Assembly: GCA_049286905.1 (NCBI GenBank)
Contig: JBAQEU010000035.1
Coordinates: 1 to 59,500 of the forward strand
Source of the DNA: Minisyncoccia bacterium
Lineage (GTDB): Bacteria > Patescibacteriota > Minisyncoccia > Phycocordibacterales > Phycocordibacteraceae
Direction of reading: 5' to 3'
DNA: 59,500 nucleotides
The notes beneath the pieces are model-generated. The model searched no databases. It saw only the letters and a program-made list of their open reading frames with translations, and was not told the origin of the DNA. Positions 48,046-48,566 of the stretch are shown here, piece by piece (position 1 is the stretch's first letter; the number at the start of each line of letters is the position of its first letter). The translations under genes were made by a program, and so were the position numbers.

Positions 48046-48146
48046 CTCGGATGCAAGGCATGGGAACGCGATTTCTTGAGACGTACTCTGTGGTACGGCA
48101 AGAGAAATCGCAGGGACCCATAACGAAGCAGACGAGGCTTTCAGAC
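48046..48146 (-). repeat. structured intergenic element, copy A (between atpE and atpF)
   Basis: About 100 nt, roughly 80% identical by eye to 48464..48566. Nested stems: ATGGG/CCCAT, GCGATTTCT/AGAAATCGC and CGTAC/GTACG. Confidence 0.7.
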
Positions 48147-48151
48147 ATGTT

Positions 48152-48379
48152 TTAGACGAATTTGATGATGAACGCGACGACAAGCGTAAGGATGCCGAGC
48201 GCTTCGGTAAACACGATTGCGAGAATCATGTTCGACACAATCTTGCCGGATGCCTCAGGATTTCTCCCGATAGCTTCCATAGCGCCGCTCCCGATGAGAC
48301 CGATACCGATACCCGGACCGATGACGCCGAGGCCGGCCGCAATCGCCATCCCGATCAAACGTGCTGAATCTATTTCCAT
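48152..48379 (-). CDS. atpE: Fo ATP synthase c subunit
   Basis: 75 aa forming a two-helix hairpin, with a GxGxGxG motif ([10 protein letters not shown]) and a carboxylate in helix 2 (FTEALGI). Confidence 0.93.
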
Positions 48380-48463
48380 AATAGTAAATTACATTGCACC
48401 CATAATAAAAGGCCCGAATCCCGGAGCCACACGAAGATCTCTCTCCAAGAGCATGATTAGAAG

Positions 48464-48566
48464 TTTCAGATGCGAGGCGCGGGAGGCCGATTTCTGGAGA
48501 CGTACTGTGTGGTACGGCGAAAGAAATCGGCGGGTCCCGCAACAAAGCAGATGAGGCTTCTAAGCG
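48464..48566 (-). repeat. structured intergenic element, copy B (between atpB and atpE)
   Basis: Same architecture as copy A: GCGGGA/TCCCGC, CCGATTTCT/AGAAATCGG and CGTAC/GTACG. Its 3' plus-strand end overlaps the atpB stop. Confidence 0.7.

Follow-up and report, generated by a model that had tools for sequence, protein, structure and literature searches.

The window analyzed here is a 59,500-nt stretch of a Minisyncoccia bacterium contig (JBAQEU010000035.1, positions 1 to 59,500, forward strand). Its atp operon carries two copies of a hairpin element of ~100-130 nt with a core of 104 nt, one on each side of atpE, the gene for the c subunit of ATP synthase. This element is a structure under selection, as is seen both from covariation of its base pairs among relatives and from the conservation of its orthologous copies. 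It belongs to a large unannotated hairpin family found past the stop codons of many different genes, with >140 examples in all.

Two copies of one hairpin around atpE

The atp operon of the window lies on the minus strand and comprises atpB, atpE, atpF, atpH, atpA, atpG, atpD, and a short atpC, in this order. An earlier note on this DNA, made from the sequence alone, had reported that the spacers on both sides of atpE are unusually long and that each contains a ~100-nt nested hairpin; the lengths that it gave, 180 nt for atpB-atpE and 137 nt for atpE-atpF, are exact. The features concerned are listed here in the order of transcription.

48560-49321, minus strand: atpB (a subunit), an open reading frame with PF00119 homologs; stop codon at 48560-48562
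48417-48590, minus strand: outer hairpin around copy B, 174 nt, in which 48563-48590 (last atpB codons, 5' arm) pair with 48417-48444
48458-48561, minus strand: copy B, 104-nt core, atpB-atpE spacer; covariance-model score 111.9 bits; one arm of the 94-nt repeat
48411-48428, minus strand: small terminator-like hairpin GGCUCCGGGAUUCGGGCC followed by UUUUAUUAU, downstream of copy B and upstream of atpE, from a terminator scan
48152-48379, minus strand: atpE (c subunit, 75 aa), an open reading frame with PF00137 found on the orthologs of L201-L204; stop codon at 48152-48154
48028-48154, minus strand: extended hairpin of copy A with basal stem UAAAACAUGUCUGAAAGC/GCUUUCCGACACGUUUUA, taking in the atpE stop codon
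48039-48142, minus strand: copy A, 104-nt core, atpE-atpF spacer; covariance-model score 114.9 bits; other arm of the 94-nt repeat; fold z = -5.45
47562-48014, minus strand: atpF (b subunit), from open reading frame and sequence

A 94-nt direct repeat with 81% identity links the two spacers (48047-48140 and 48466-48559), and copies A and B are 76% identical. A 40-nt degenerate pattern of the core occurs at these two sites only in the window, against a shuffle expectation of 0 (n = 100), and a covariance-model search of the window with filters off revealed no third copy, returning besides A and B only their weak reverse-strand shadows. Both copies adopt the same nested hairpin fold with compensatory differences (z = -5.4 to -6.8), and none of 200 shuffles folded equally well. 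All stems quoted in the earlier note are present, namely GCGATTTCT/AGAAATCGC versus CCGATTTCT/AGAAATCGG, ATGGG/CCCAT versus GCGGGA/TCCCGC, and the invariant CGTAC/GTACG. The repeat and the fold that it described therefore stand, but the extent does not, because both hairpins are longer than ~100 nt.

The basal stem of the extended copy A hairpin is also found in the relatives L009, L202, and L203, and the minimum free energy (MFE) fold of 48000-48190, the region of copy A, reaches -58.4 kcal/mol (z = -6.7). The core of copy B begins at the atpB stop codon, and its outer hairpin is formed by a 28-nt inverted repeat that is 82% complementary (MFE -87.7 kcal/mol, z = -4.7). The stop codons that precede the window copies are TAA and TAG. 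The previous claim that neither copy is followed by a U-run is correct for copy B, which has none directly 3' of its hairpin, but copy A ends in GUUUU, with four U at the stem end of the extended hairpin, and UUUUAUUAU follows the small hairpin at 48411-48428. In the region of the copies, the terminator scan called only this small hairpin and neither copy. It is native to the spacer and outside the repeat, and the block CTCCGGGAT...TTTTATTAT is common to element-free relatives.

Between the extended copy A hairpin and the start of atpF are 13 nt that contain no Shine-Dalgarno motif. Nor is such a motif seen before atpF, atpE, or atpB (48012-48027, 48380-48400, and 49309-49345, minus strand), where the leaders are A/U-rich; in the database AtpB homolog, the second ATG (49309) is the start codon. 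Anti-Shine-Dalgarno mimicry by the CCUC/CACCUC loops, which would sequester a ribosome-binding site, was dropped as a candidate because the three genes are devoid of a Shine-Dalgarno motif and because many copies have no downstream gene on the same strand.

Distribution and conservation of the family

The sample consisted of 80 Patescibacteria atp loci, one per species, together with the window, and further relatives (L201-L204) were obtained via AtpB homologs. Window AtpB is 86-88% identical to proteins of metagenome-assembled genomes (MAGs) of Candidatus Kaiserbacteria/Paceibacteria. A blastn search of the 80 relatives with both spacers gave three weak matches only, and the element was seen in L009 (after atpE) and L010 (after atpD); the family as such came into view only by covariance model. 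The covariance model R1 was built from four sequences, that is, window copies A and B and those of L009 and L010. In their alignment, 14 of 29 pairs are compensatory, and whole helices are swapped with pairing kept (GCGATTTCT/AGAAATCGC, GCGGAAACG/CGTTTCCGC, and GCTCTTTTCT/AGAAAAGAGC), while the blocks CUCGUCUGC, GUUGCGGG, and CCCGCGCCUCGCAUCCGAG are constant. A search of the window and the 80 loci with R1 yielded 33 good matches, to which a second pass added one, so that the search proposed in the earlier note did bring to light further homologs with structure-preserving variation. The conserved blocks of the consensus are YUGC-UUYGUUG, CGUAC..GUACG-YCUC, and CGCCUYGCAUC. Thirty of the 33 matches are located in atp intergenic spacers, and the copies are placed as follows.

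After atpE: ~15
After atpD: ~10
After atpG: 1
After atpB: 2
Before atpF, second, reverse-oriented copies: 2 (L046, L055)
After atpC (operon end): 0

The three matches outside atp spacers comprise one in L027, past the gene of a 493-aa probable membrane protein (DUF2207 is a by-eye label for this unscanned protein), and two near a DEAD-box helicase gene. The latter (L046 464-563 and L055 895-995, both minus strand) precede by 28-32 nt the start codon for a DEAD-box RNA helicase with a Ser/Arg/Gly-rich N-terminus, and this is the sole context in which the element does not follow a stop codon. These two copies are orthologous, with 77% identity and a compensated helix, versus 46% identity at fourfold sites, and could mediate autoregulation by a factor that acts on the hairpins. 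The same two genomes have an inverted pair of elements in the atpE-atpF spacer (L046, 11234-11331 on the plus strand with 11428-11529 on the minus strand; L055, 11118-11219 on the plus strand with 11315-11415 on the minus strand), and among all copies the reverse-oriented one shows the highest conservation (90% between L046 and L055).

Copy number varies among close relatives. In the nearest species representatives, L001-L005, the spacers are short and element-free; L202 and L203 (87% AtpB identity) possess both orthologous copies, with a third after atpD in L203; and L201 and L204 (87-88% AtpB identity) have zero copies. The number is thus 0, 2, or 3 at 86-88% AtpB identity. The bracketing of atpE, on which the earlier note had centered, is confined to the window, L202, and L203, and most genomes have a single copy after atpE and/or one after atpD. 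In L001-L005, a short hairpin spans the atpB stop (CCGCACGAGGCGCAC-TAG-CGGCGCTTCGTGCGG), and copy B of the window occupies the loop of that hairpin. A conserved stop-spanning atpB hairpin is found in the relatives without copy B (L002, L003, L004, L006, L008, L009, and L010 at ~10700-10800; L201 and L204); in it the coding end pairs with the spacer and covaries, and the CTCCGGGAT...TTTTATTAT block comes next. Stop-spanning hairpins thus seem to be a general trait of these atp operons.

Selection on structure, for which the earlier note had argued from two copies, is borne out by the alignment of 34 copies, in which both partners vary in 26 of 29 pairs and pairing extends to 89.5% of cells, versus 62% after shuffling (0 of 500 shuffles reach the observed value); slid controls are all far below the observed pairing. 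Orthologous copies also change far more slowly than synonymous sites, as the comparison of the window with L203 indicates.

Copy A core: 90% identity
Copy B core: 93% identity
Coding DNA of six atp genes: 79% identity
Fourfold-degenerate sites of the six atp genes: 56% identity
Spacer tails outside the hairpins: unalignable

Between L046 and L055, four orthologous pairs, among them the reverse-oriented copy and the helicase-upstream copy, are 72-90% identical, against the 46% at fourfold sites given above. The window differs from L202/L203 by three compensatory double changes in the hairpin that encloses copy B. These changes altered atpB codons, two of them non-synonymously, and the downstream arm followed.

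Beyond these loci, an exact pattern derived from the conserved core and blind to gene context matched at least 120 metagenome contigs, in which R1 confirmed at least 111 elements. Only one of these copies adjoins an atp gene, which means that the family is generic rather than special to atp. The genes that precede the copies are unrelated and serve housekeeping or metabolism (among them hdrA, complex I, fumarase, AlaRS, DnaB, EF-Tu-family GTPase, L2), and the downstream genes are equally varied, including rpsJ and rplR, so that some sites are within ribosomal-protein operons. Pfam scans of 68 upstream and 51 downstream proteins revealed no enriched family and no transposase. One multi-copy contig is from Smithella/Smithellaceae, as its HdrA is ~90% identical to named MAG proteins, and for a G+C-rich contig the closest proteins are those of Rokubacteria/NC10 (67-69% identity), a weak assignment; the family is present in at least two bacterial phyla, probably three. 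The link to atp proposed in the earlier note holds for Paceibacteria, but outside Patescibacteria the element is scattered like a REP-type repeat unrelated to atp, an outcome that the note itself had named as speaking against its proposal. Taken over the whole family, the atp-specific reading is wrong, yet it mirrors a real enrichment in Paceibacteria.

Metagenome copies cluster on contigs, with three in tandem on contig L095 (2589-2967) and two or three on several others, and Smithella-type copies on the same contig are ~90% alike. Most Smithella-type copies have the form AAAAAG..CC ... GG..CTTTTT, a motif that is enclosed in a further stem, GACGGCTTCGT/ACGAAGCCGTC, with a second distal arm after it. 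The distal 3' arm GACTTTTTACGAGNCCATCAA is able to pair with the 5' end TTGAYGGCTTCGTAAAAAGTC too, which gives alternative or nested outer stems (L095 2589-2967; L113, L162, and others), and in many of these copies the TGA stop of the upstream gene is within the conserved 5' end. The idea that TTGAY marks an IS200/IS605-like target site in Smithella-type copies is weakened, as the TTGAYGG end pairs with the distal CCRTCAA arm.

Several other observations were made in the window. The 48-nt atpD-atpC spacer has a perfect 11-bp hairpin, GGUUCGACCUU...AAGGUCGAACC, at 43236-43272 (minus strand), directly past the atpD stop and followed by UUUAAAAU; it is not a family member, and the same spot holds the element in L203 and L010. 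The product of atpC (epsilon; 42979-43224, minus strand) has only 81 aa, and its orthologs match only the N-terminal domain family PF02823, the C-terminal helical domain seemingly being missing. Divergent from atpB is a gene for 83 aa (49394-49645, plus strand), the syntenic counterparts of which in L201-L204 are annotated as SWIB-domain proteins (PF02201), and a terminator-like hairpin at 49673-49691 follows this gene. Finally, an open reading frame of 2091 aa (50374-56649, minus strand), with many tandem repeats of ~40 residues (SSTNSIWVAN..NVTKLNASTGA..GTY.VG) and then long Thr/Ser-rich modules, probably encodes a giant surface protein.

Possible roles and the acting strand

The element is placed with respect to the gene before it. 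In 64 of the at least 111 metagenome copies, a same-strand open reading frame ends a median of 11 nt (interquartile range 8-14) before the core, and only 12 have an opposite-strand open reading frame ending near the 3' side; among the metagenome matches listed, orientation is tied to the adjacent gene in ~95% of informative cases. In Patescibacteria, the start of the palindrome falls at the stop codon or within it, and its outer arm base-pairs with the last part of the coding sequence. The 5' end is thus locked to the stop codon, and the distance from the 3' end to the next gene is variable.

The stop-codon lock, the fixed orientation, the placement between co-transcribed cistrons, and the plain hairpins at the same places elsewhere lead us to favor, tentatively, a cis-acting mRNA hairpin at cistron ends that would serve as a decay barrier or attenuator and would probably be read by a conserved factor. 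Copies before rpsJ and rplR within operons, where efficient termination is implausible, likewise favor an intercistronic role at the RNA level. We infer that the sense RNA is the active form, and effects on stability and attenuation and the participation of a factor are to be understood in the same sense. Each copy in the polycistronic atp mRNA would fold into a long, loop-interrupted hairpin based at the stop codon, marking the cistron end, and would hinder 3'-to-5' decay and/or bring about weak attenuation or processing, such that the upstream mRNA segment might outlast or outnumber the downstream segment. The invariant loop and wobble nucleotides suggest a putative conserved trans-acting reader, which may be an RNase, helicase, or RNA-binding protein. 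In F-type ATP synthase, c10-15 stand to b2, and beta3 to epsilon1. In Paceibacteria, the element recurs at the c-to-b (after atpE) and beta-to-epsilon (after atpD) junctions, where the number of subunits needed falls, and in the lineage of the window the second, upstream copy may give a hairpin-capped, long-lived atpE segment. The roles suggested in the earlier note, that is, processing site, stabilizer, or translational insulator, are plausible candidates.

Several features weigh against this cistron-end role of the sense RNA. The three internal loops are pyrimidine-rich on the gene (sense) strand, with tandem G.A and purine loops on the antisense strand, and the opposite strand is therefore predicted to be more stable; the difference is ~8-10 kcal/mol in 33/33, 87/91, 19/20, and 47/47 copies. 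G.U is no commoner than A.C in the variable helices, and the basal helix has A.C 26 versus G.U 7, a balance that is atypical for selection on one RNA strand. Copy B follows atpB, a gene for a subunit with one copy per complex, and precedes atpE, and one genome has the element after atpG, neither of which fits a rule of falling stoichiometry. Moreover, the close relatives L201, L204, and L001-L005 are wholly element-free, and L046 and L055 have conserved reverse-oriented copies within the atp operon. In favor of the sense RNA, a U.G wobble on the sense strand is invariant (89/90 and 20/20 copies), and this is a typical RNA recognition feature.

The strand asymmetry might suggest that the active form is the other strand or the DNA itself, that is, a single-stranded DNA hairpin or cruciform, or an antisense RNA, for a DNA-processing or nucleoid protein, the orientation bias then being a matter of transcription or replication-strand asymmetry. 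In agreement with this, ~97% of 190 copies fold better as the antisense strand. On that strand, the conserved 2x2 loop turns into tandem sheared G.A and the apical loop into U.G/G.A/A.G/G.U. Furthermore, G.U and A.C have about equal frequencies in the core helices, A.C exceeds G.U in the basal helix, and reverse-oriented copies are conserved. However, the ~95% tie of orientation to the adjacent gene is much above ordinary replication-strand gene bias, the 5' end is fixed at the stop codon while the 3' distance varies, the invariant sense U.G would be an A.C mismatch on the antisense strand, and no obvious source of antisense transcription exists inside operons; we consider this explanation quite unlikely.

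A selfish or passively spreading palindromic repeat of the miniature inverted-repeat transposable element (MITE), REP, or REPIN-like kind, tolerated only past stop codons or inside loops of terminator-like hairpins already in place and with no dedicated atp function, would account for the hundreds of copies implied in Smithella-like genomes, for their ~90% likeness within a contig and tandem clusters (L095 2589-2967), and for the presence of 0, 2, or 3 copies among relatives. The location of copy B in the loop of a hairpin that relatives have without the element, the TA dinucleotides that flank several copies, and the occurrence of the family in very distant phyla also fit. A neutral selfish insertion does not accord, however, with orthologous cores far above fourfold sites and at least as conserved as adjacent coding DNA, and the outer stems in Patescibacteria are locus-specific and pair with coding sequence, which means that they were not carried in by a transposon. 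Copies within Patescibacteria genomes are old (A versus B, 76%; L046, 60-70%), a TA flank looks the same as the beginning of a palindrome at a TAA or TAG stop, and no transposase is linked to the element in the 59.5-kb window and flanks of up to 20 kb, although no systematic transposase search was made. We consider this explanation unlikely. A plain intrinsic terminator, possibly bidirectional, in which the hairpin is only incidentally conserved, would be in keeping with the AAAAAG..CC-hairpin-GG..CTTTTT form of most Smithella-type copies, the location of 20 of the at least 111 metagenome copies between convergent genes, and the GUUUU end of copy A. Yet the Patescibacteria copies are inside the atp operon and never after atpC, others are within ribosomal-protein operons, copy B has no U-run after it, the T-tract of Smithella-type copies is itself paired in the longer outer stem, and a terminator needs neither invariant loops nor a fixed orientation of an asymmetric core; this possibility appears improbable. 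A small protein gene is extremely improbable: a 40-codon frame from ATG to TAA (MSESLVCFVMGPCDFSCR...) is open in copy A when read from the sequence, but copy B lacks a start codon in the matching frame, the differences between A and B are mostly non-synonymous yet pairing-preserving, and in homologs the helix sequences are replaced wholesale with pairing kept, and it was rejected.

Two other known classes of element were also rejected. A bacterial selenocysteine insertion sequence (SECIS), a hairpin directly past an in-frame UGA that is decoded as selenocysteine, is not compatible with the mixed stop codons upstream of the metagenome copies listed (TAA, TAG, and TGA, 22:14:28) or with upstream open reading frames that are full-length, for example HdrA at 649/649 aa. 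An integron attC site would have R''/R' boxes (RYYYAAC ... GTTRRRY) and would reside in a cassette array beside intI. Here, the 5' arm contains GTTG, AAC/GTT boxes paired in attC order are absent, and the neighbors are housekeeping genes (atp, ribosomal proteins, hdrA).

A more far-reaching version of the cistron-end role, which we regard as doubtful, would have the family act as a cross-phylum RNA module at cistron ends, a site bound sequence- and structure-specifically by a conserved factor, such as a DEAD-box helicase or RNase, that couples translation termination to mRNA fate and sets ATP synthase ratios in Patescibacteria; or else the family would be a new class of strand-specific single-stranded DNA element homing to stop codons. 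If the factor were the DEAD-box helicase, this would account for the copies in the 5' region of that helicase's own gene. If the cistron-end role favored above holds, genome-reduced Patescibacteria, in which Shine-Dalgarno signals ahead of these genes seem to be absent, would tune ATP synthase subunit ratios by a portable RNA module and not by translational signals, and the conserved loops and the helicase link would offer a handle on the factor that reads stop-adjacent hairpins.

Comparison with known systems

Comparison with Rfam, which the earlier note had proposed, gave no matching family. At the gathering threshold, Rfam 15 found only three tRNAs in the window, with ATPC (RF01067) unmatched; at E <= 10, only chance matches to 47900-48700 were obtained (ROSE_3, 14 bits; sR45, 13 bits); and at E <= 1, there were none to seven element-bearing metagenome loci. 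A blastn search of a plasmid collection with both element types gave no match, and literature text searches, including the sequence string and preprints, found no published description. The RNA catalogue gains a well-supported structured family, with strong covariation, that current RNA libraries miss, and for annotation the family accounts for unusually long spacers in otherwise compact operons.

The ATPC RNA motif, which is located in the spacer between the a and c genes of Prochlorococcus/Synechococcus, is also an RNA-like structure in the atp operon beside the c-subunit gene; it has no match in sequence or structure to the present family, comes from another phylum, and differs from a family that is not limited to atp operons. 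Intercistronic hairpins that act as decay barriers or processing sites are known from the Rhodobacter puf operon and from the RNase III sites of phage T7. The action proposed here, an intercistronic hairpin that sets differential mRNA abundance within one operon, is similar, although here it is only predicted, and those hairpins are single-locus and share no sequence family.

Repetitive extragenic palindromic (REP) hairpins confer stability on the mRNA before them, malE-malF being an example; translation of the upstream gene can be lowered by REPs that lie within ~15 nt of a stop codon, and RhlB aids the decay of REP-containing fragments. The REP/BIME and REPIN elements of Enterobacteria and Pseudomonas exhibit considerable similarities to the family, being intergenic or intercistronic palindromic repeats that are transcribed in mRNAs, lie near stop codons, vary in copy number among genomes, and occur in tandem and inverted arrangements, and a link to a DEAD-box helicase is hinted at in L046 and L055. 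There are also differences. The family is three times longer (100-130 versus 20-40 nt), has no GTAG head in its consensus, and has three conserved asymmetric internal loops and the invariant U.G. Its core is common to several phyla, whereas REPs are species-specific, and, unlike REPs, it has an orientation to the upstream gene that is ~95% fixed and shows purifying selection on single orthologous copies.

ERIC/IRU, the Neisseria Correia elements, and pneumococcal BOX/RUP are long hairpin repeats of the MITE-like type with effects on the stability or processing of mRNA. Like the family, they are ~100-150 nt in length, form an imperfect palindrome over the whole length, reside in transcribed intergenic regions, and are variably present among relatives; unlike it, they are marked by defined terminal inverted repeats and by target duplications, and each is restricted to one genus or family. 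Smithella-type copies do share the outer stem GACGGCTTCGT/ACGAAGCCGTC, but the outer stems of Patescibacteria differ per locus and include upstream coding sequence. Empty sites are present in L201, L204, and L001-L005, but the divergence of the relatives is too great for filled and empty sites to be compared cleanly. A TA dinucleotide borders both window copies and that of L009; being self-complementary and also the start of a stop codon, it is not diagnostic. Near-identical copies occur on Smithella-type contigs (~90%), but not in the lineage of the window (A versus B, 76%) or in L046, where copies are ~60-70% identical to one another. In addition, the core is kept across Patescibacteria, Syntrophales, and a probable Rokubacteria/NC10-like lineage. 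Overall, the family is closest in behavior to REP/BIME, ERIC, and Correia-type repeats and is set apart from them by its length, its asymmetric loops and wobble, its near-absolute orientation, its overlap with stop codons, and its cross-phylum core.

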